Shown piece after piece: positions 13,002 through 27,039 of a DNA stretch of 64,000 bases. The notes beneath the pieces were generated by a model, which worked only from the letters and a program-made list of their open reading frames with translations, searched no databases and had not been told where the DNA came from. The stretch's first letter is position 1, and the number at the start of each line of letters is the position of its first letter. Position numbers and translations under genes: made by a program. Where the stretch lies: positions 97,550 through 161,549 of the forward strand of contig CAZWEM010000003.1 of the NCBI GenBank assembly GCA_964632315.1. Direction: 5' to 3'. Source of the DNA: an uncultured archaeon (lineage in GTDB: Archaea; Asgardarchaeota; Lokiarchaeia; Sigyniarchaeales; SOKP01).

Positions 13002-14009
13002 ATGAAATTATATTTGGTTAATCAAGGACAACTCCAAGAAATAAATAATCCGATCTTTTCCACTGGTGATGTATATTTAGTTGATGATGATAGGACGATC
13101 TATGTCTGGATTGGAAACAAATGTTCAGTTGATGAAAAAACTGCTGGAGCAGCCCAAGCACGTACTTTAGATCAGCAAAGAGGGGGAGCAGCAAAAATTA
13201 TTACTATTGATCAAAACCAAGAAACAGCTGAATTTCTCAAACTCATATCTTCAATGGGAGCGATGAAAGTGGTCGAGAAAAATGTCGCTCGAACCATGCT
13301 AAAGGATGTTGTTACAGGTGATTATGCTCAATTTAATGAGCACATTAATGTTTTATATAGAGTATCTTCTGAAGAGTTTGAAGGAATTGATGCAATGAAA
13401 ATGGTACAAGTACCTTACGTTAGAGAGAGTTTAGATACAGAAGATTGTTTTGTATTAGATTTAGGTAACAAAATATATGTTTGGCAGGGCAATGCTTGTA
13501 ATGTAAAAGAAAAAGTAAAATCGGGACAATGGGCTCGTCAAATTGATGCAGAGCGAGCAGGTTTGCAAAATGAAACGATTTTTGAAGAAGGTGACGACGT
13601 TGAGTTTATCAATGCTCTCCAAAAGGGAGAAAATTATAAAGAATCAGATGCATTTCAATTACGAGCAGAATCAGAATTAGAACCTGAAACCGAAGCAGAT
13701 AAAATGGCAGAATCCATCCAACCAGAGCATAAAGCTACAATCTCAGATGTCACGCCTGAACAGATAAAACAAGAGATAAAAGCAGTAAGTGCATCAAGTG
13801 CTGGTCCAGGAATTCCTGGTGCAGTTGACGATTCAATTCTCACTATTGAGAAAAGTGATGGTCGCCGAGTTTGTCCAAAATGCGGGAATGAAAATAAAAT
13901 GTCCATTCACGAATCAGTTGATAAAAGCAATATCATATTAGATTATCCGAGAGTATACGGTAAAAAGTACCGCTGTGGTGAATGTGGAATCGAATGGCGG
14001 GAAAAATAG
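13002..14009 (+). CDS. two-domain gelsolin-family actin regulator with C-terminal Zn ribbon
   Basis: FSTGDVYLVD...IYVWIG..CS.DEK and SLDTEDCFVLDLGNKIYVWQG...N.KEK gelsolin repeats; RRVCPKCG...KKYRCGECG. Confidence 0.85.
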   Translation: MKLYLVNQGQLQEINNPIFSTGDVYLVDDDRTIYVWIGNKCSVDEKTAGAAQARTLDQQRGGAAKIITIDQNQETAEFLKLISSMGAMKVVEKNVARTMLKDVVTGDYAQFNEHINVLYRVSSEEFEGIDAMKMVQVPYVRESLDTEDCFVLDLGNKIYVWQGNACNVKEKVKSGQWARQIDAERAGLQNETIFEEGDDVEFINALQKGENYKESDAFQLRAESELEPETEADKMAESIQPEHKATISDVTPEQIKQEIKAVSASSAGPGIPGAVDDSILTIEKSDGRRVCPKCGNENKMSIHESVDKSNIILDYPRVYGKKYRCGECGIEWREK

Positions 14010-16342: not shown

Positions 16343-16939
16343 TTAATTTTTAATTCTTTCTTTCCAAGAGTCACTACGAGCTCCATTTGTGCCTAAATTC
16401 TCTTCGTGGGAATCGATCTGGAAAATTTCTTGAGGTTCGGCAGAGTTTCTTGAGAGAATGTTTCTTACCTCAGTTACATCGCTTTTGGGAGCATTTTCTT
16501 TTCCCGTAATTTTTCTATAACCCCACCTTGTTAAGTAGATCACTAAAGTAAGTCCAAAGGAAAAGAGAAAGTATACAGCAATCCATCCATCACCAAAGAA
16601 AAGAAGTGGAAAAGGAAGTAAAGCTCCATAAGGATTATAAAAAATTCCAATGATCGCGAATATTATCCAAAAAACGATACATCTCGCGCATGAGGGTAAA
16701 ATCTGTTTTTTCATCATTTCTTTAGTTAACTGCATTGATTCCTGTTGTAAACTATAGAATTGTTGCGTATCAGAAGTTAATTGCGCATTTTTCATTCTCT
16801 CCTGAAGATTTTTTGTTTTCTCTCTAAATTCTTTAGAACTTTTAGGACTAATCCCCATTATTTTATTTAATAGCAAGCTAAAGACAACCATACCTAGCGT
16901 TATAAAAAAGATTTGGAGGATAATAAACTCATTTGCCAT
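16343..16939 (-). CDS. EMC3/TMCO1 (DUF106, Oxa1 superfamily) membrane insertase-like protein
   Basis: TM, coiled coil (QQESMQLTKEMMKKQ), TM, LPFPL...GWIAVYFL TM. Confidence 0.7.
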   Translation of the reverse strand: MANEFIILQIFFITLGMVVFSLLLNKIMGISPKSSKEFREKTKNLQERMKNAQLTSDTQQFYSLQQESMQLTKEMMKKQILPSCARCIVFWIIFAIIGIFYNPYGALLPFPLLFFGDGWIAVYFLFSFGLTLVIYLTRWGYRKITGKENAPKSDVTEVRNILSRNSAEPQEIFQIDSHEENLGTNGARSDSWKERIKN

Positions 16940-18353: not shown

Positions 18354-18686
18354 TTAGACTTCAGTTCCACAAGACTTACAAATATATTTCTTTGCATAAA
18401 TCTTCATTCCGCCTTGTTGAAAAAGCACCTGTGACTGATCTTCAACCGTATTAAATGAAGTTCCCCCACATTTTGGGCAAACTCTCCTACCTTCTATAGG
18501 AGGATTTTCCTTAGTTTTTTCCTCTTCCTCCTGCTTTTCAACTACCGAGGAGGGTTTTACAATACCACTTGCTTCTGGCATGGAATGAGAAACTGTTCTT
18601 GTTTGCGATTTGTTTTCCAGAAGGGAATCAAGTTTTTTATTGATCACTTCTAGTAATGAAATTACTTTCTGTTCAAAATCAGACAT
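18354..18686 (-). CDS. small protein: short N-terminal coiled coil plus Zn ribbon
   Basis: Likely start MSDFEQK at 18686 (the ORF-track extension overlaps the upstream gene); GRRVCPKCGG...YAKKYICKSCG. Confidence 0.7.
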   Translation of the reverse strand: MSDFEQKVISLLEVINKKLDSLLENKSQTRTVSHSMPEASGIVKPSSVVEKQEEEEKTKENPPIEGRRVCPKCGGTSFNTVEDQSQVLFQQGGMKIYAKKYICKSCGTEV

Positions 18687-18795: not shown

Positions 18796-21117
18796 CTATC
18801 TTTTTTCTTTTGAAGGAGCAAAAATCTTGAAAAAATCTCTTTTTAATTTAACTTGAGCTTGAAATTTGATTATCACTTTATTTCCTGTTAATGTGACCCC
18901 ATGCAATTGGGTAAAACCACTTCCAAATCCAGTAAAAGCTATTATGTCCCCATTACTAAGATTCGAATCTAATTTTGATGCATCTTTTATACGGAGATAA
19001 ATCCCTCGATATAAATCCTCTAATTTATTCATATTATGAATACTGGAGAAAACGGAACTTCCACTATAATTTTCTATAATATAATCATATAGTTGATTAA
19101 GTGGTTTTTTATCAATTTTAATTATTTCACCTTTGAGCCCTCGCTTTGCAATTAATAATGCCGCAATTGCGTGGTCCACGAATCCTTTCGCCTTAACTTC
19201 ATTTACCAATTCTCCTTTTTGAAGGTGAAATAATGCTTCCTTTGTAGTTTTAAACTCATCAATTAAAAAAATATCAGGTTTTCTAATTCTAGACCCTTCT
19301 GTAGGGGTTTCTGAATTTAATTCATTGGGATTAATTGCAAAATAATCTAAAAGAAATTCTAATATGAATTGTGAACCAGATCCCGAACCAATATAAATTT
19401 TTGTGATTAACTCCTTTTCATTTTCTAAAAATGTATTTAGTTCATACTCAAGTTGTTTTCGAGCTACATTATGAGACTTTCGATCCTCAATACTTCTTTT
19501 CAAATTAACATACCATAAAGAAGGCAACTGTCCCCTCTCAATCACACAGAAACCAAAATGTCTAGTTCCCGGATCCACTGAAAGAATTTTTTCCTCAAGA
19601 TCAAATTTGAGCAAGCTTAAATGAGCTTGACCTTCAGAGACTTTCATTAGGGAATTAAAGAATTTTTCAAATTCTTCATTCTTAATTTGGAGGAAAATTT
19701 TGTTGTTTGAAGACTTAAATAAGACTTCAACCTTATACTTCTCAATTAAAGGATTGAGGTCATAAAAATTTTCTACTTGAACGATAACATCTTGATAAGG
19801 TATTAATTTAATTATTTTGACTTTTTCAATCGCTTTTGTAATTGCTTGAGCAATATGTTCTTCCTTTTTACCCGAATAAATTTCAACGTGTAGACCATCT
19901 AAATGAAAGGCATCATAAGCAACCGCTGCGCCAAGAATATCGCATTGTCTTGTAGCTCGAAGCCCATTTCGTTGAATTGTGAGTTTATCTCTTATTCTAG
20001 GAATTATTTTTACTGATGCAGTTTCATATTTTGCCTTACTACTTCTATTAATCGTTATAATTCCCTTAATCTTAGAACCGATAACTTCAAAATCAATCAA
20101 GTTTTCAAGCATTTCTTGAAAATATTCAAATTGTAAGTCTCCTTGCGTTAGAATTGTGATTTTTCTTCCCTCATAATAATAATCCAAATTAGGAAAGATT
20201 TTCTTAATTTTTTCTAAAACTTCTAGAGCAACATGGAATTTTGAAGGATCTTGAATTGCTATATAATGCTCTTTTCTCGGTTTGATTTCGGATAAAATTC
20301 CTACAAGTTTAGGAGAAATAAATTTTCCATTTTTATACTTTGAGCCAAGTTCAAAATTAGGAACTACATTAAATAATAATTGAACAATCTCGCCCTCACA
20401 AGCCCGTTTTTCAGGTTTACCAGATAAGGAGTAGATAAACTTTATTTTAATCTTTTCATTTATCCATTGATTTTCTCTTATCTCACCTGAAATAATTCCA
20501 ATGTTTACAAGTTCTCCTAATCCTTTTTTAGTCTCGAATCCAAGTATGATGAATGATAAAATTTCTTCCATCTCTACTCGAATCTTTGCTTGTAGTGTGA
20601 TCTTTTCAATTAACTTATCAATGCCAATCCTTAATTTTGAGGAAGTCTCTATGATCGAAAGAATTTTTAAACTTTCTATACTATTTAATTCCTTTTTTAT
20701 TTTTTCAACATTGATCCCCGATAAATCCATTTTAGTAATGATAATCATAACTGGAATGTTTTTTTCAATAGCTTTATCAACTAACCAATAGGTTCTTGCT
20801 TGAAATCCTTCTGATCCTGAAACTACTAATCCTAGAATATCTGCAAATTCCAGACCAAGTGCGATACCTCCTTGAAAATCAGAATGGCCTGGGCTATCAA
20901 GAAAATTTATAAAAGTGTTTTTCTGTGATAAAAAGAATTGAATCACTTTTAAAGAAACAGTTGTACCATGATTTAATTCGAAATTTAAATTATCGGGAAA
21001 TTCCCCTACAATTGCTTCAATTAGAGAGCTTTTACCATGTTGAGAATGTCCGCAAATTAAAATGTTGAGAATTTTAGGAGTTTCTTTCATTCTATACCAA
21101 ACTGATTCAGTCTTCAA
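18796..21117 (-). CDS. EF-G/EF-2-like translational GTPase fused to a YqgF/RNase H-fold domain
   Basis: G1 GHSQHGKS, G3 DSPGH, G4 TKMD, domain III-like QGDLQFEYF.E.L; then ILSVDPGTRHFGFCV, IDEFKTTKEA, VDHAIAALLI. Alternative ATG at 21090. Confidence 0.75.
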   Translation of the reverse strand: MKTESVWYRMKETPKILNILICGHSQHGKSSLIEAIVGEFPDNLNFELNHGTTVSLKVIQFFLSQKNTFINFLDSPGHSDFQGGIALGLEFADILGLVVSGSEGFQARTYWLVDKAIEKNIPVMIIITKMDLSGINVEKIKKELNSIESLKILSIIETSSKLRIGIDKLIEKITLQAKIRVEMEEILSFIILGFETKKGLGELVNIGIISGEIRENQWINEKIKIKFIYSLSGKPEKRACEGEIVQLLFNVVPNFELGSKYKNGKFISPKLVGILSEIKPRKEHYIAIQDPSKFHVALEVLEKIKKIFPNLDYYYEGRKITILTQGDLQFEYFQEMLENLIDFEVIGSKIKGIITINRSSKAKYETASVKIIPRIRDKLTIQRNGLRATRQCDILGAAVAYDAFHLDGLHVEIYSGKKEEHIAQAITKAIEKVKIIKLIPYQDVIVQVENFYDLNPLIEKYKVEVLFKSSNNKIFLQIKNEEFEKFFNSLMKVSEGQAHLSLLKFDLEEKILSVDPGTRHFGFCVIERGQLPSLWYVNLKRSIEDRKSHNVARKQLEYELNTFLENEKELITKIYIGSGSGSQFILEFLLDYFAINPNELNSETPTEGSRIRKPDIFLIDEFKTTKEALFHLQKGELVNEVKAKGFVDHAIAALLIAKRGLKGEIIKIDKKPLNQLYDYIIENYSGSSVFSSIHNMNKLEDLYRGIYLRIKDASKLDSNLSNGDIIAFTGFGSGFTQLHGVTLTGNKVIIKFQAQVKLKRDFFKIFAPSKEKR

Positions 21118-21625: not shown

Positions 21626-22003
21626 TCATACTCTCCCTAAATCTCTACTTGCAATGACATTAGCATCAGTATTAAGAACATTTTTTATAAGAATTTGTCC
21701 CATTTTTACTGGAGCCTTTATCTTCTTTTCAGCTATTACTTTCATTGCTTCATTTAATTTATCTCTAAGAATAGGTTTATCAGTTCTAATTGGTACAAGC
21801 GGAAGAAATCCATTTTCTACTCTCATTGTGGTCGTGAGTATTCTTTTTGGTTCATAAAATTCTTGTTGGGCATATTCTAAACCTCTTTTGCACGTATATC
21901 CTTCAAACGTGATTTGTTGATCTTTATCTTGCAAAACTTTGATTTCACATCCAGTTGGACATACAATGCATCGAATTATCCTAACGGTACTTAATTCTGA
22001 AAT
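21626..22003 (-). CDS. DUF1667 family (CxxCPxGC) small subunit of the G3P dehydrogenase cluster; non-canonical ATT start
   Basis: Frame is open upstream of the TTG at 21934 through RCIVCPTGCEI; GAGGTG SD 7 nt before ATT at 22003; GYTCKRG..YA..E...PKR.LTTT. Confidence 0.8.
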   Translation of the reverse strand: MSELSTVRIIRCIVCPTGCEIKVLQDKDQQITFEGYTCKRGLEYAQQEFYEPKRILTTTMRVENGFLPLVPIRTDKPILRDKLNEAMKVIAEKKIKAPVKMGQILIKNVLNTDANVIASRDLGRV

Positions 22004-22019
22004 TATAGTTCACCTCTTA

Positions 22020-23315
22020 TCAATCCTCTTCTATTAAAACCTCCGGACGAGGTATTATTTCTATTTCGATTGTCTTTAAAGAATCTAAAGGTAAATCTTT
22101 GGGTTCTAGTTCTATTTCAACCATTTCACTTGGAATTACATATACTTTCTTCTTCTTATAAATTACGTTATTATTTTGATCCTTAAGTTGGACTAGTATT
22201 CTTCTATCGGGATATCTTGCTCGTAATGTAAAGATAATTTTTTCAGATAAATTTTGCATATTTATTCGATCTGGCTTGATATAATTAACATTCTCTCCAG
22301 GTGCACATTTTACATATTCAGGTTCTTTTAATTCTCTACCATGCCTATTTTGGATATAATCTATAGCGTTTTTACCGGCTCTTTTCGCTTCAGCAGTGAC
22401 CATATCAACCAAATCATGAACTTGGAGAACATTTCCACAAGCAAAAATCCCTTCTATAGTTGTTTCAAGATTATTATCCACTAAAGGTCCACCATTATTA
22501 GAGAGTTCTGCTCCTGCTTGATACGTGAGTTCATTCTCTGGAATTAAACCCACGGATAAGAGTAAAGTATCACACTCAATAAATTTCTCAGAGCCTATAA
22601 TTCTATCAAAATTTCTGTCTACTTTTGAAATGGTGACGCCAACAATGCGATCTCGTCCATGAATTTTAGTGACAGTATAATTTGTAATCAGGGGAATGTC
22701 ATAATCTTCAAGGCATTGAACCTGGTTTCTTAATAATCCACTTACATATGGTAAGATCTCTACTACTGCTTTAACTTTACAACCTTCCCAAGTTAACCGA
22801 CGTGCCATTATCATCCCAATATCACCACTGCCTAAGATCACGTAAGTGTTTCCGGGCATATATCCCTCAATATTAACAAAACGTTGTGCTTGCCCTGCAG
22901 TAAATATGCCTGCTGGTCGAAATCCAGGAATGTTTATAGCACCCCTAGTTCTTTCTCTGCATCCCATTGCAAGAATTATTGCTTTAGAATTTATCTCTAT
23001 TAAGCCTTGTTCTTTATTTACGGCATATATTCGTTTACTTTTTGTGATTTCAATAACCATAGTGTTTAAAAGAAAGGGAATTTTTAGTTCATGAACTTGA
23101 TTAATGAATCTTTGAACGTATTCAGGTCCGGTGAGTTCTTCTTCAAATTCTTTTAAACCAAAACCATTATGAATACATTGAAGTGTTATTCCACCCAATT
23201 CCTTATCTCTTTCCAATATCAAAACATCAAGATTTGCCTTTTTTACTTCTACTGCAGCAGCCAGTCCCGCTGACCCCGCACCAATGATAATAACATCCAC
23301 GCTAAATGACTTCAT
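22020..23315 (-). CDS. FAD/NAD(P)-dependent oxidoreductase (partner of GlpA-like subunit)
   Basis: GAGSAG, QCIHNGFG, MGCRER, GSGDIG, ACGNVL.VHDLVD. Confidence 0.9.
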   Translation of the reverse strand: MKSFSVDVIIIGAGSAGLAAAVEVKKANLDVLILERDKELGGITLQCIHNGFGLKEFEEELTGPEYVQRFINQVHELKIPFLLNTMVIEITKSKRIYAVNKEQGLIEINSKAIILAMGCRERTRGAINIPGFRPAGIFTAGQAQRFVNIEGYMPGNTYVILGSGDIGMIMARRLTWEGCKVKAVVEILPYVSGLLRNQVQCLEDYDIPLITNYTVTKIHGRDRIVGVTISKVDRNFDRIIGSEKFIECDTLLLSVGLIPENELTYQAGAELSNNGGPLVDNNLETTIEGIFACGNVLQVHDLVDMVTAEAKRAGKNAIDYIQNRHGRELKEPEYVKCAPGENVNYIKPDRINMQNLSEKIIFTLRARYPDRRILVQLKDQNNNVIYKKKKVYVIPSEMVEIELEPKDLPLDSLKTIEIEIIPRPEVLIEED

Positions 23316-24778
23316 TCTTCTTCTACCTCCTCTTGATTTAGAAGAATTTCCTTCGTCTTTCCTGATAAAATACGGGTATATTCTCCTTTTTTAGTAATTT
23401 TTTCATAAGGAATATTCAACTCTCTTGATAAAATCTCCATAACTCTAGGGCGACAAAAACCTCCTTGGCAGCGTCCCATCCCTGGACGGCACCTGAATTT
23501 AACTCCATCAACATTCGTTGCGCCTACAGGAGAATGAATAGCATTTAAAATTTCTTTTTCAGGAATAGTTTCACATCTGCAGATTATATTTCCCCAAGTG
23601 GGATCTTCTTGTATTTTTTTATCTAGTTCTTCTTTTGAAAAATCCTTGAAACGTTCAGGCTTAGGTCTTATTGGGTTATAATCATCTTTAATTTTCAACT
23701 CCAAGCCTAAGAGTTCAAGAAATCCAACGACTTTTTCAGCGATAGCAAAACAAGATGTTAAACCTGGAGATAATATTCCCGCTACATTGATAAATCCATA
23801 TACATCCGTATTATCTATTATAAAATCGTAGCTATCTGGAACAGCCCTCAAACCAGCAAAATTCCTTATAGAAGCCCTTACAGGTAAATTTGGTACGAGT
23901 TTTCTTGCGCCTTCTATAATCTCTTTTAAACCCGCTTCTGTTGTGGAGGTGTCTTTTTTATCAGTTATATTTTGAGCATTAGGACCTACAAAGGTGTTCC
24001 CGTGAAGAGTTGGACAAACTAATATACCCTTGGATATTTTTGTGGGAATAGGGAATAATATTTTATTCAAATGCATTGAATTACGATCAAACAAGATATA
24101 TTCTCCTTTCCGAGGCATAATATCAAAATAATCCATTCCTACCATTTTTGATATTTTAGCAGCATAGAGTCCAGCAGCGTTAATTACATTATTTGCACGA
24201 AATTCCTTATCTTTTGTTTTTATTATAAACACGTAATTTTGATGCTTTATTCTTTTAACTTTTTGACTTCGATAAAATTTAACACCATTCATTGCCGCAT
24301 TTTCCGCAAGAGCAAAAGTCATCTCATAAGGACTGACAAGTCCTGCTGAAGGAGCATGAAGTACTCCAACTACTTCATCAGTTATGTTAGGCTCCATGTA
24401 TTTAATTTTTTCTTTATCTAAAATAAGATCTAGTCCAAGAACACCATCTTGTGTTCCCTCTTTACGTTGTCTTTCTAAATCCTTAATTTGATCATCTTCT
24501 AAAGCAACTACAAAGGATCCTATTCTCTGAAAAGGGAAATTTAATTCTTCTACAGCTTGTGTATACATTTTGTTTCCTTTTATGCACAAATCACGTTTAA
24601 TATATTCCCTTTCTGCTGCGTATCCTGCGTGCACAACTCCAGAATTAGCTTTTGTAGTGCCAGAAGCTACATCTGCCTCTTTTTCTAAGAGAGCTATATT
24701 AAGATCATATTTAGAGAGTGTGCGTGCAATGGTGCAACCGGTTACTCCGCCTCCAATTATGATGACATCATAAATCAT
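23312..24778 (-). CDS. glpA: FAD-dependent glycerol-3-phosphate dehydrogenase-like (GlpA/LhgO) protein with C-terminal BFD-like [2Fe-2S] domain
   Basis: GGGVTG, TTKANSGVVHAG, SPGLT, ICRCE...RPGMGRCQGGFC. Confidence 0.8.
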   Translation of the reverse strand: MIYDVIIIGGGVTGCTIARTLSKYDLNIALLEKEADVASGTTKANSGVVHAGYAAEREYIKRDLCIKGNKMYTQAVEELNFPFQRIGSFVVALEDDQIKDLERQRKEGTQDGVLGLDLILDKEKIKYMEPNITDEVVGVLHAPSAGLVSPYEMTFALAENAAMNGVKFYRSQKVKRIKHQNYVFIIKTKDKEFRANNVINAAGLYAAKISKMVGMDYFDIMPRKGEYILFDRNSMHLNKILFPIPTKISKGILVCPTLHGNTFVGPNAQNITDKKDTSTTEAGLKEIIEGARKLVPNLPVRASIRNFAGLRAVPDSYDFIIDNTDVYGFINVAGILSPGLTSCFAIAEKVVGFLELLGLELKIKDDYNPIRPKPERFKDFSKEELDKKIQEDPTWGNIICRCETIPEKEILNAIHSPVGATNVDGVKFRCRPGMGRCQGGFCRPRVMEILSRELNIPYEKITKKGEYTRILSGKTKEILLNQEEVEEE

Positions 24779-26610: not shown

Positions 26611-27039
26611 TTACCAGAAGGCTTCTTTTAAGTTATCTTCAGGAGCTTTCTCCAAAGATTTCTTTATATGTGTTCCAAAATCTGCAAAAAGAGAGATATC
26701 ACTATTCCAATCTAATATAGTATCTTGTGGATACACTTCGAAAAATTTGTCTGAGATGACTTTTAATTCTTCGAGAGTCTTTTTTTCCTTTGTCTTATTC
26801 GCAGTACTTCCAATAAACAAGAATTCTCTTCTCCGTACTACCACAAATCTCAGGTTGCTTAATTCAAAATTAGAAATGCCTCCATCAGATAACTTTTCTG
26901 CAAAGGAGTTCAATGCGGACATTAAAGCACCGAAAAGTTGAGGATTTATTTTTTCATCAATAACTCTTGAATATAATACTACCCCAGTAGATGTTAAGAT
27001 CCACAGATCCTTCAGTATTTTTCCCAAAAGTATCTCCAA
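26611..27039 (-). CDS. stand-alone longin/roadblock-like domain protein (eukaryotic signature)
   Basis: LWIL...G..LYSR...QLFGALMSALNSFA...ISNFEL...F....FLFIG pattern. Confidence 0.7.
   Translation of the reverse strand: MEILLGKILKDLWILTSTGVVLYSRVIDEKINPQLFGALMSALNSFAEKLSDGGISNFELSNLRFVVVRRREFLFIGSTANKTKEKKTLEELKVISDKFFEVYPQDTILDWNSDISLFADFGTHIKKSLEKAPEDNLKEAFW

Follow-up and report, generated by a model that had tools for sequence, protein, structure and literature searches.

A Lokiarchaeal EF-G-like GTPase fused to a YqgF/RuvX-type RNase H-fold domain: a candidate ribosome-docking nuclease

The window analysed here, a stretch of 64,000 nucleotides with a G+C content of ~30% from an uncultured archaeon of the Lokiarchaeia, carries at positions 18796..21090 of the minus strand a gene for an EF-G-like GTPase to which a YqgF/RuvX-type domain and a small basic barrel are fused. 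The fusion is real and is conserved in three archaeal lineages, namely the Lokiarchaeia, Asgardarchaeum and its relatives, and the Methanopyri, and we see in the family a new subfamily of translational GTPases that has a nuclease built in. A GTPase with the EF-G domain order, a nuclease domain hung on domain V by a short linker and a basic tail are most simply read together as a GTP-gated nuclease that docks at the factor site of the ribosome. We consider this the best and most economical reading and give it a probability of roughly one half.

An earlier note on this DNA had proposed an EF-G-like GTPase fused to a YqgF-type RNase H-fold domain with a further C-terminal domain, and profile, structure and conservation evidence bear out this architecture. 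Two findings had been set beforehand as possible refutations, the lack of an RNase H fold in the C-terminal part and a fusion unique to this assembly. The fold was confirmed, and the fusion recurs in many genomes of the three lineages.

The gene and its GTPase body

The open frame at 18796-21117 (-) was confirmed, and the open reading frame lister extends it to a TTG at 21117. The homologues and a database twin start at the equivalent of an ATG at 21090, which sets the start of the gene and gives a protein of 764 residues plus the stop codon. Residue numbers refer throughout to this ATG-start protein (P0002) and equal those of the 773-residue TTG-start translation (P0001) minus 9. The family alignment comprises 81 full-length homologues at 53-89% identity; the homologues with a named source are all Promethearchaeota/Lokiarchaeia, and the databases name the family only as 'GTP-binding protein' or 'IF-2 GTPase'. 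Distant relatives at 31-35% identity, which align with the window protein end to end, were used for the residue checks. The AlphaFold2 model of the whole protein, built on the 81-homologue alignment, has a mean predicted local distance difference test score (pLDDT) of 78.9 and a predicted template modelling score of 0.70.

Residues 1-172 (20575..21090, -) form a G domain of EF-Tu type without the G' insertion, the sole part of the N-terminal body of the window protein that Pfam recognises (GTP_EFTU, 3.5e-24, residues 15-174 of the 773-residue translation, 85.9 bits against a cut-off of 26.5). The motifs are G1 GHSQHGKS, the switch I threonine T44, G3 DSPGH, G4 TKMD and G5 SSK. The catalytic His69 within DSPGH (20884-20886, -) is invariant across the 81 sequences, as are G14, K20, S21, T44, D65, G68, K120, D122 and S150, and all G motifs together with the PGH histidine are unchanged in the distant relatives. 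This histidine is the residue positioned by the sarcin-ricin loop in ribosome-dependent GTPases. From its motifs, the GTPase looks competent. Against the NCBIfam models the G domain stands at much the same distance from IF-2, LepA, Tet(M), EF-G and SelB, with all scores far below the equivalog cut-offs (EF-G, 58.6 bits vs 583; archaeal elongation factor 2 (aEF-2), 23.5 vs 738; LepA, 66.4 vs 533.9; TypA, 49.4 vs 757).

The G domain is followed by domains II to V in the order of EF-G and aEF-2. Domain II, a β-barrel at residues 176-262 (20305..20565, -), is all-β at 179-258 in the AlphaFold2 model; relatives match Pfam EF-G_D2 here (1.7e-7, 30.7 bits), and a profile of the part outside the G domain also matches domains II-III of genuine aEF-2 proteins from other Asgard genomes. 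Domain III (residues 270-342; 20065..20283, -) has the order β-α-β-β-α-β and pairs in hhalign with residues 392-467 of aEF-2 (Pfam EFG_III). The segment QGDLQFE..E.L, previously called domain III-like, proved to be just that, its GDLQFE helix pairing with the GLGELHLDI helix of aEF-2 domain III. Between this segment and the one assigned to domain V lies a shortened domain IV that the earlier note did not mention, β3-α-β-α at residues 343-425 (19816..20064, -), which is collinear in hhalign with residues 468-625 of aEF-2 and shows two large deletions relative to it and a truncated tip loop. Domain V (residues 426-495; 19606..19815, -) is a second β-α-β-β-α-β unit with the motif IPYQD...KVSEGQA and pairs with residues 626-695 of aEF-2 (Pfam EFG_C), so that the domain V-like label given to IPY..V.V...L..VSEG.A was also right. 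Relatives show weak Pfam matches to EFG_C and SBDS_C in this region. As a whole, residues 262-500, taken as a profile, are collinear with a bona fide Asgard aEF-2 through domains III, IV and V (E 4.7e-6, 216 columns).

Fold comparisons of the whole model agree with this layout. Foldseek returned LepA, aEF-2 and EF-G at E 8e-27 to 1e-25, and VIA-align gave Z 32-33 to EF-G, aEF-2 and Snu114, with 333-434 residues aligned (434 in aEF-2 6u43) over the model from residue 1 to about 500-658. The likeness to aEF-2 and EF-G thus comprises an EF-Tu-type G domain with its catalytic histidine and domains II-III-IV-V in the same order, at Z about 33 (32.8-32.9). The window protein differs from them in having no G' insertion and no full-size domain IV, the latter being reduced to ~80 residues with the two deletions, in carrying ~270 extra C-terminal residues, and in being dispensable. 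LepA (EF4) and BipA/TypA have in common with it that the G domain is compact, lacking G', and that a further domain comes straight after domain V, and LepA was the best Foldseek match (E 8e-27, template modelling score by target 0.50-0.51). These two proteins, however, are without domain IV, their C-terminal domains are not nucleases, and they occur in bacteria and organelles; Pfam gave no match to LepA_C and none specific to BipA. Judged by profiles and by the predicted model, the body is an EF-G/aEF-2-family translational GTPase and an accessory paralogue, the genome's own aEF-2 and other translation factors being encoded elsewhere.

Snu114 is as good a match to the model as EF-G (Z 31-32), and together with Prp8's RNase H-like domain it offers another case of an EF-2-like GTPase working with an RNase H-fold domain. 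In the spliceosome, however, the GTPase and the domain belong to different proteins, and that of Prp8 is not of YqgF type. At the level of sequence nothing ties the family specifically to either, and the relationship is one of resemblance only.

The nuclease domain and the C-terminal barrel

About seven residues link domain V to a YqgF/RuvX-type RNase H-fold domain at residues 498-656 (19123..19599, -), which was assigned from Pfam RuvX matches in relatives, from hhalign and from fold matches. The acidic motifs SVDPG, IDEFKTT and VDHAIAA, already picked out from the letters of the window, are present, and the carboxylates are invariant. D506 (19573-19575, -) lies in strand 1, E612 (19255-19257, -) at the end of strand 5 and D639 (19174-19176, -) in the C-terminal helix, and D506, E612 and the pair D639-H640 are unchanged in the 81 homologues and in the relatives at 31-35% identity, from the Lokiarchaeia to Methanopyrus. 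This is the three-carboxylate layout of YqgF. Strand 4 is followed by an invariant glycine-rich loop without an acidic residue, and placement of the second carboxylate after strand 5, not strand 4, is the hallmark that separates YqgF from RuvC (PMC3985635, PMC9601230). The three residues correspond to D22, E106 and D122 of Deinococcus radiodurans YqgF, mutation of which impairs or abolishes RNase activity (PMC9601230).

Pfam RuvX (PF03652) is matched by 11 of 12 family representatives, the best at 2.5e-8. The diverged full-length relatives P0119, P0120 and P0121 score 30.7, 31.1 and 29.2 bits against the cut-off of 29.2, over profile positions 2-128 of 134, and one partial relative is named 'Holliday junction resolvase RuvX' by NCBI. 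In hhalign the family profile aligns collinearly with the entire 138-residue E. coli YqgF, and the motifs pair as DPGT with DFGT, VDE.kTTkEA with HDERLSTVEA, and VDHaIAAL with VDSASAVI. The domain thus resembles the bacterial YqgF/RuvX proteins in its carboxylate positions, in its DE..(S/T)T.EA and VD..A motifs and in full-length collinearity. It differs in that those proteins stand alone at ~140 residues, whereas here the domain is archaeal, is fused to a GTPase and a barrel, has an insertion of 20-45 residues before strand 5, and has as its nearest relative an Asgard-specific standalone family that Pfam does not recognise. Assignment to RuvC (PF02075) was rejected. RuvC has its catalytic Glu at the end of strand 4 and two acidic residues on the last helix, whereas here strand 4 is followed by none and the last helix bears just one Asp, with a His after it; only two of the 12 members match Pfam RuvC, at E 0.037.

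In a separate model covering residues 495-764, strands 1-5 and the initial helices are predicted with confidence and residues 612-685 poorly. An exhaustive VIA fold search gave RNase H-like matches at Z 6.8-9.3 over model residues 1-127; Foldseek listed RuvC, RuvX, YqgF and Tex, and the nearest ESM Atlas models are Tex_YqgF, RuvX and RuvC. The ASKHA kinase or actin-like folds that fill the top VIA rows (Z 9.3) were rejected, the domain being a single RNase H-like unit with RuvX sequence matches. To all appearances in the alignment, the nuclease domain is an apparently intact one of YqgF/RuvX type.

The domain could instead be a non-cutting RNA-binding module as in Tex, Spt6 and Prp8, which would make the protein a GTPase with an RNA-binding tail. 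The YqgF-like domains of Tex and Spt6 have no demonstrated nuclease activity (PMC3985635), and both proteins are among the fold matches (Z 7.0-7.5). We nonetheless hold this to be quite unlikely, given that the three YqgF carboxylates are invariant from the Lokiarchaeia to Methanopyrus, while Tex is without the third (PMC3985635), and that the nuclease domain is conserved as well as the G domain. The same residue decides the name of the domain. Of the label 'YqgF/Tex-type' used in the earlier note the YqgF part stands and the Tex part does not, RuvX-type being the apter term.

A linker at residues 657-695 (19006..19122, -), helical and below pLDDT 50 in both models, leads to a small β-barrel at residues 696-764 (18799..19005, -; pLDDT 79-88) that is strongly basic and has no assigned family. 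Its isoelectric point (pI) is 9.9-11.0 in all eight clade representatives, and in the Methanopyrus protein the barrel is basic although the G domain and domains II-V have a pI of 4.7-5.0. That the barrel is basic in every clade points to nucleic-acid binding, which is probably its function. Its sole fold match, 3g1j_B (an integron cassette protein, Z 6.8), is uninformative, a protein-atlas feature search with residues 655-764 gave no usable match, and the C-terminal profile found among PDB sequences only a chance kinase match (E 0.19). Prediction of a homodimer of the C-terminal 270 residues scored 0.00, which counts neither way. Identity between clades is 43% for the G domain, 40% for the nuclease domain and 20-29% for domains II-V; as far as an alignment can tell, selection acts most on the G and nuclease domains.

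The standalone paralogue of the nuclease domain is a protein of 285 residues, encoded at G000:C35:38870-39727 (L050:1483-2340, +) and also at L040:1191-2048 (hhalign 96%, E 1.7e-9). It has the motifs DPG and DE.(S/T)SK, with KHE replacing DHA, and no Pfam match. It has 295 homologue clusters, those with a named source coming from Promethearchaeota/Lokiarchaeota, Hodarchaeota and Thorarchaeota, and it may be an unrecognised Asgard resolvase-like nuclease. In both genomes examined, that of the window included, its gene adjoins a divergent gene for a RadB/Rad51-like ATPase.

This neighbour brings up the possibility that the fusion, too, works on DNA, as a junction or flap nuclease in recombination or repair whose EF-G-like body has been re-used as a GTP switch off the ribosome in the manner of Snu114 in the spliceosome. 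YqgF/RuvX proteins of Mycobacterium tuberculosis and Helicobacter pylori do resolve Holliday junctions (PMC9601230), and in Asgardarchaeum a DUF87/HerA-like gene lies 1.5 kb upstream of the fusion. On the other hand, neither RadB nor a repair gene stands beside the fusion in any lineage, and the hallmarks of ribosome dependence, the PGH histidine and the domain order II-V, are all kept and invariant. We regard a role on DNA as unlikely.

Distribution, dispensability and gene neighbourhood

A search of 1.84 billion cluster representatives with the profile of the part outside the G domain found only 14 proteins, which comprise one Lokiarchaeal cluster, five diverged full-length clusters (735-744 residues) and fragments. 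The diverged clusters belong to Ca. Asgardarchaeum/Asgardarchaeia and to the Methanopyri, the latter including the isolates Methanopyrus kandleri AV19, KOL6 and SNP6; the AV19 protein (AAM02777.1, UniProt Q8TV36) is named 'Translation initiation factor 2, GTPase'. When one genome per GTDB species was scanned with a pattern, 34 loci turned up in the Promethearchaeota and one in Ca. Asgardarchaeum abyssi. Within a set of 400 genomes of the phylum, 35 of the 134 that belong to the window's family have full-length matches, as do genomes of two other families; the other matches are to domains II-III of ordinary EF-2 proteins or to the standalone nuclease paralogue.

The gene is accessory and dispensable: of 41 congeneric species genomes only 10 have it. 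A repeat search of five congeners of 99-100% completeness, with the whole protein as query, gave only weak G-domain matches to other GTPases. In three of these five the whole neighbourhood is intact, with genes for a GlpA-like protein, a pyridine nucleotide-disulphide oxidoreductase, a DUF1667 protein and a phosphatase on one side and for a Zn-ribbon protein, a radical SAM protein and EMC3, on to gelsolin, on the other, and an AT-rich gap of 520-756 bp at the place of the gene. No remnant of the gene was found in these gaps, and loss is for this reason not separable from gain at the empty loci. In one species genome the orthologue is split over two frames, with ~50 residues missing mid-gene and the last ~70 absent (L051, G164:C29:600-4400), which is either a decaying copy or an assembly error of the metagenome-assembled genome. 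The gene tree and that of a neighbouring gene have all shallow clades in common and conflict at deep nodes, and this suggests, short of proof, vertical descent with repeated loss as the simplest reading.

So patchy an accessory distribution, even within one genus, and the frameshifted and truncated copy in one species genome would suit a system of conflict or dormancy by which a cell puts its own ribosomes out of action, for instance when a virus infects it. Such a system appears very unlikely, however. PADLOC gave no match, the gene sits at one fixed locus among genes of housekeeping type rather than in a variable island, the lineages have no conserved candidate immunity partner in common, and the agreement of the shallow clades with those of the neighbouring gene fits vertical descent with losses.

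The same distribution bears on a dedicated role in rRNA maturation, by which the protein would be an archaeal counterpart of bacterial YqgF, trimming the pre-rRNA of subunits close to completion, with its GTPase serving as a checkpoint of assembly. The EF-G-like GTPases EFL1 and BipA act in subunit maturation, which counts for this proposal, as does the lack of any standalone Pfam-type RuvX gene found in the genome of the window. E. coli YqgF, moreover, processes the 5' end of pre-16S rRNA, and does so only within 70S ribosomes (PMC9601230). Against it, the gene is missing from 31 of the 41 congeners, several of them 100% complete and with the locus otherwise intact, and since the gene can be dispensed with a general maturation step is unlikely. 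In addition, no rRNA or ribosome-biogenesis genes are linked to the gene in any lineage. We consider dedicated rRNA maturation improbable.

In the Lokiarchaeia a phosphatase gene lies upstream of the fusion in 26 of 35 loci and the Zn-ribbon protein gene downstream, likewise in 26 of 35. The suggestion in the earlier note that the adjacent dual-specificity phosphatase might regulate the protein did not survive this comparison. The phosphatase keeps its place in congeners without the gene and is often parted from it in Lokiarchaeal genomes by insertions of 1.5-3.4 kb, and both flanking genes are absent from the Asgardarchaeum and Methanopyrus loci, which themselves have nothing meaningful in common. 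The adjacency is Lokiarchaeal synteny that persists without the gene. The Zn-ribbon protein was likewise rejected as an obligate partner, as it stays in congeners without the gene. RsmB/F methyltransferase genes 4-6 kb off in the Methanopyrus and Asgardarchaeum loci are probably there by chance, with none near the gene in the window's genome.

Further observations concern the surroundings of the gene. Asgard hallmarks in the window are proteins with gelsolin repeats, with a longin domain and of EMC3/TMCO1-like type. Two of them are of eukaryote type and lie near the gene, the longin domain protein, which is of the Fuz/MON1/HPS1 type (26611-27039, -), and the EMC3/TMCO1-like one, which is a membrane protein (16343-16939, -). 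The small Zn-ribbon protein (18354-18686, -) has a C-terminal Zn-ribbon module in common with the C-terminus of a two-domain gelsolin (13002-14009, +), with tblastn cross-matches at 35-45% identity. The genes for the GlpA-like flavin adenine dinucleotide dehydrogenase, the pyridine nucleotide-disulphide oxidoreductase and the DUF1667 protein (21626-24778, -) are syntenic across the Lokiarchaeia at 72-82% identity. In Methanopyrus a gene for a protein of 227 residues and of no known family (L037:10229-10912, +) shares 4 bases with the GTPase-nuclease gene at the latter's stop codon, an overlap that suggests translational coupling; the Asgard loci showed nothing equivalent. Elsewhere in the window's genome a second EF-2-like GTPase frame of 772 residues with one in-frame TAA (G000:C25:28897-29514, -) lies ~3 kb from another EF-Tu-family GTPase gene of 609 residues. 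The 772-residue frame may belong to a paralogue or a pseudogene, or it may reflect recoding.

Proposed function

In the mechanism that we favour, the EF-G-like body would dock in its GTP form at the ribosomal factor-binding site, where the sarcin-ricin loop would activate the conserved catalytic histidine. The nuclease, hanging off domain V, would be kept close to the stalk base and to the subunit interface on its A-site side, which is where the C-terminal domains of LepA and BipA sit. It would cut an RNA there, whether mRNA, tRNA or rRNA, and GTP hydrolysis would then release the factor. Ribosome binding, the RNA substrate and GTP gating are what we infer from the combined analysis. That E. 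coli YqgF acts inside the 70S particle indicates that members of the YqgF family are able to work in the setting of the ribosome. Neither core translation nor obligatory rRNA maturation would be the role of the protein; since close relatives do without the gene, its role would be conditional, in quality control, rescue or inactivation of particular ribosomes.

Several points weigh against a ribosome-docking nuclease. Snu114 is an EF-G-type body that works away from the ribosome, and with its truncated domain IV the window protein is not expected to make the contacts of a translocase. The neighbourhoods in the three lineages have nothing translation-linked in common, and it is a RadB-like gene that stands beside the standalone nuclease paralogue. 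The window protein itself reaches only 14.3 bits with Pfam RuvX (cut-off 29.2, E 0.053), so that its membership in YqgF rests on its relatives and on profile comparison, and the region with E612 and D639 is modelled at low confidence. The VIA matches of the nuclease domain are of middling score (Z 7-9.3) and mix ASKHA kinase and actin-like subdomains, the chloroplast RuvC MOC1, RuvC, YqgF, Tex/Spt6 and Pelota. Lastly, some YqgF proteins cut DNA junctions (PMC9601230).

Literature searches on Asgard/Lokiarchaeota and Methanopyrus, with Q8TV36 included, found no paper on this fusion. Translational GTPases deliver tRNAs, move the ribosome, or recruit separate effectors such as Pelota and release factors, and to our knowledge the ribosome-dependent nucleases RelE, Cue2/SmrB and Rae1 have no built-in GTPase delivery. 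We tentatively suggest that the family may represent a new class of ribosome-associated nuclease, in which a YqgF endonuclease is brought to the factor-binding site and the A-site by the translation-factor-like GTPase to which it is covalently joined, for GTP-gated cutting of RNA.

The family is small and sharply defined, and among its hosts are Methanopyrus and the archaeal lineage that stands closest to eukaryotes. The cultured hyperthermophile M. kandleri AV19 carries it, which puts a stable protein and matching ribosomes within reach, and the congeners with and without the gene offer a ready natural comparison. If true, the proposal would mean a new coupling of GTP-dependent ribosome recognition to RNA cleavage, and it would bear on ribosome quality control, rescue or shut-down in archaea.

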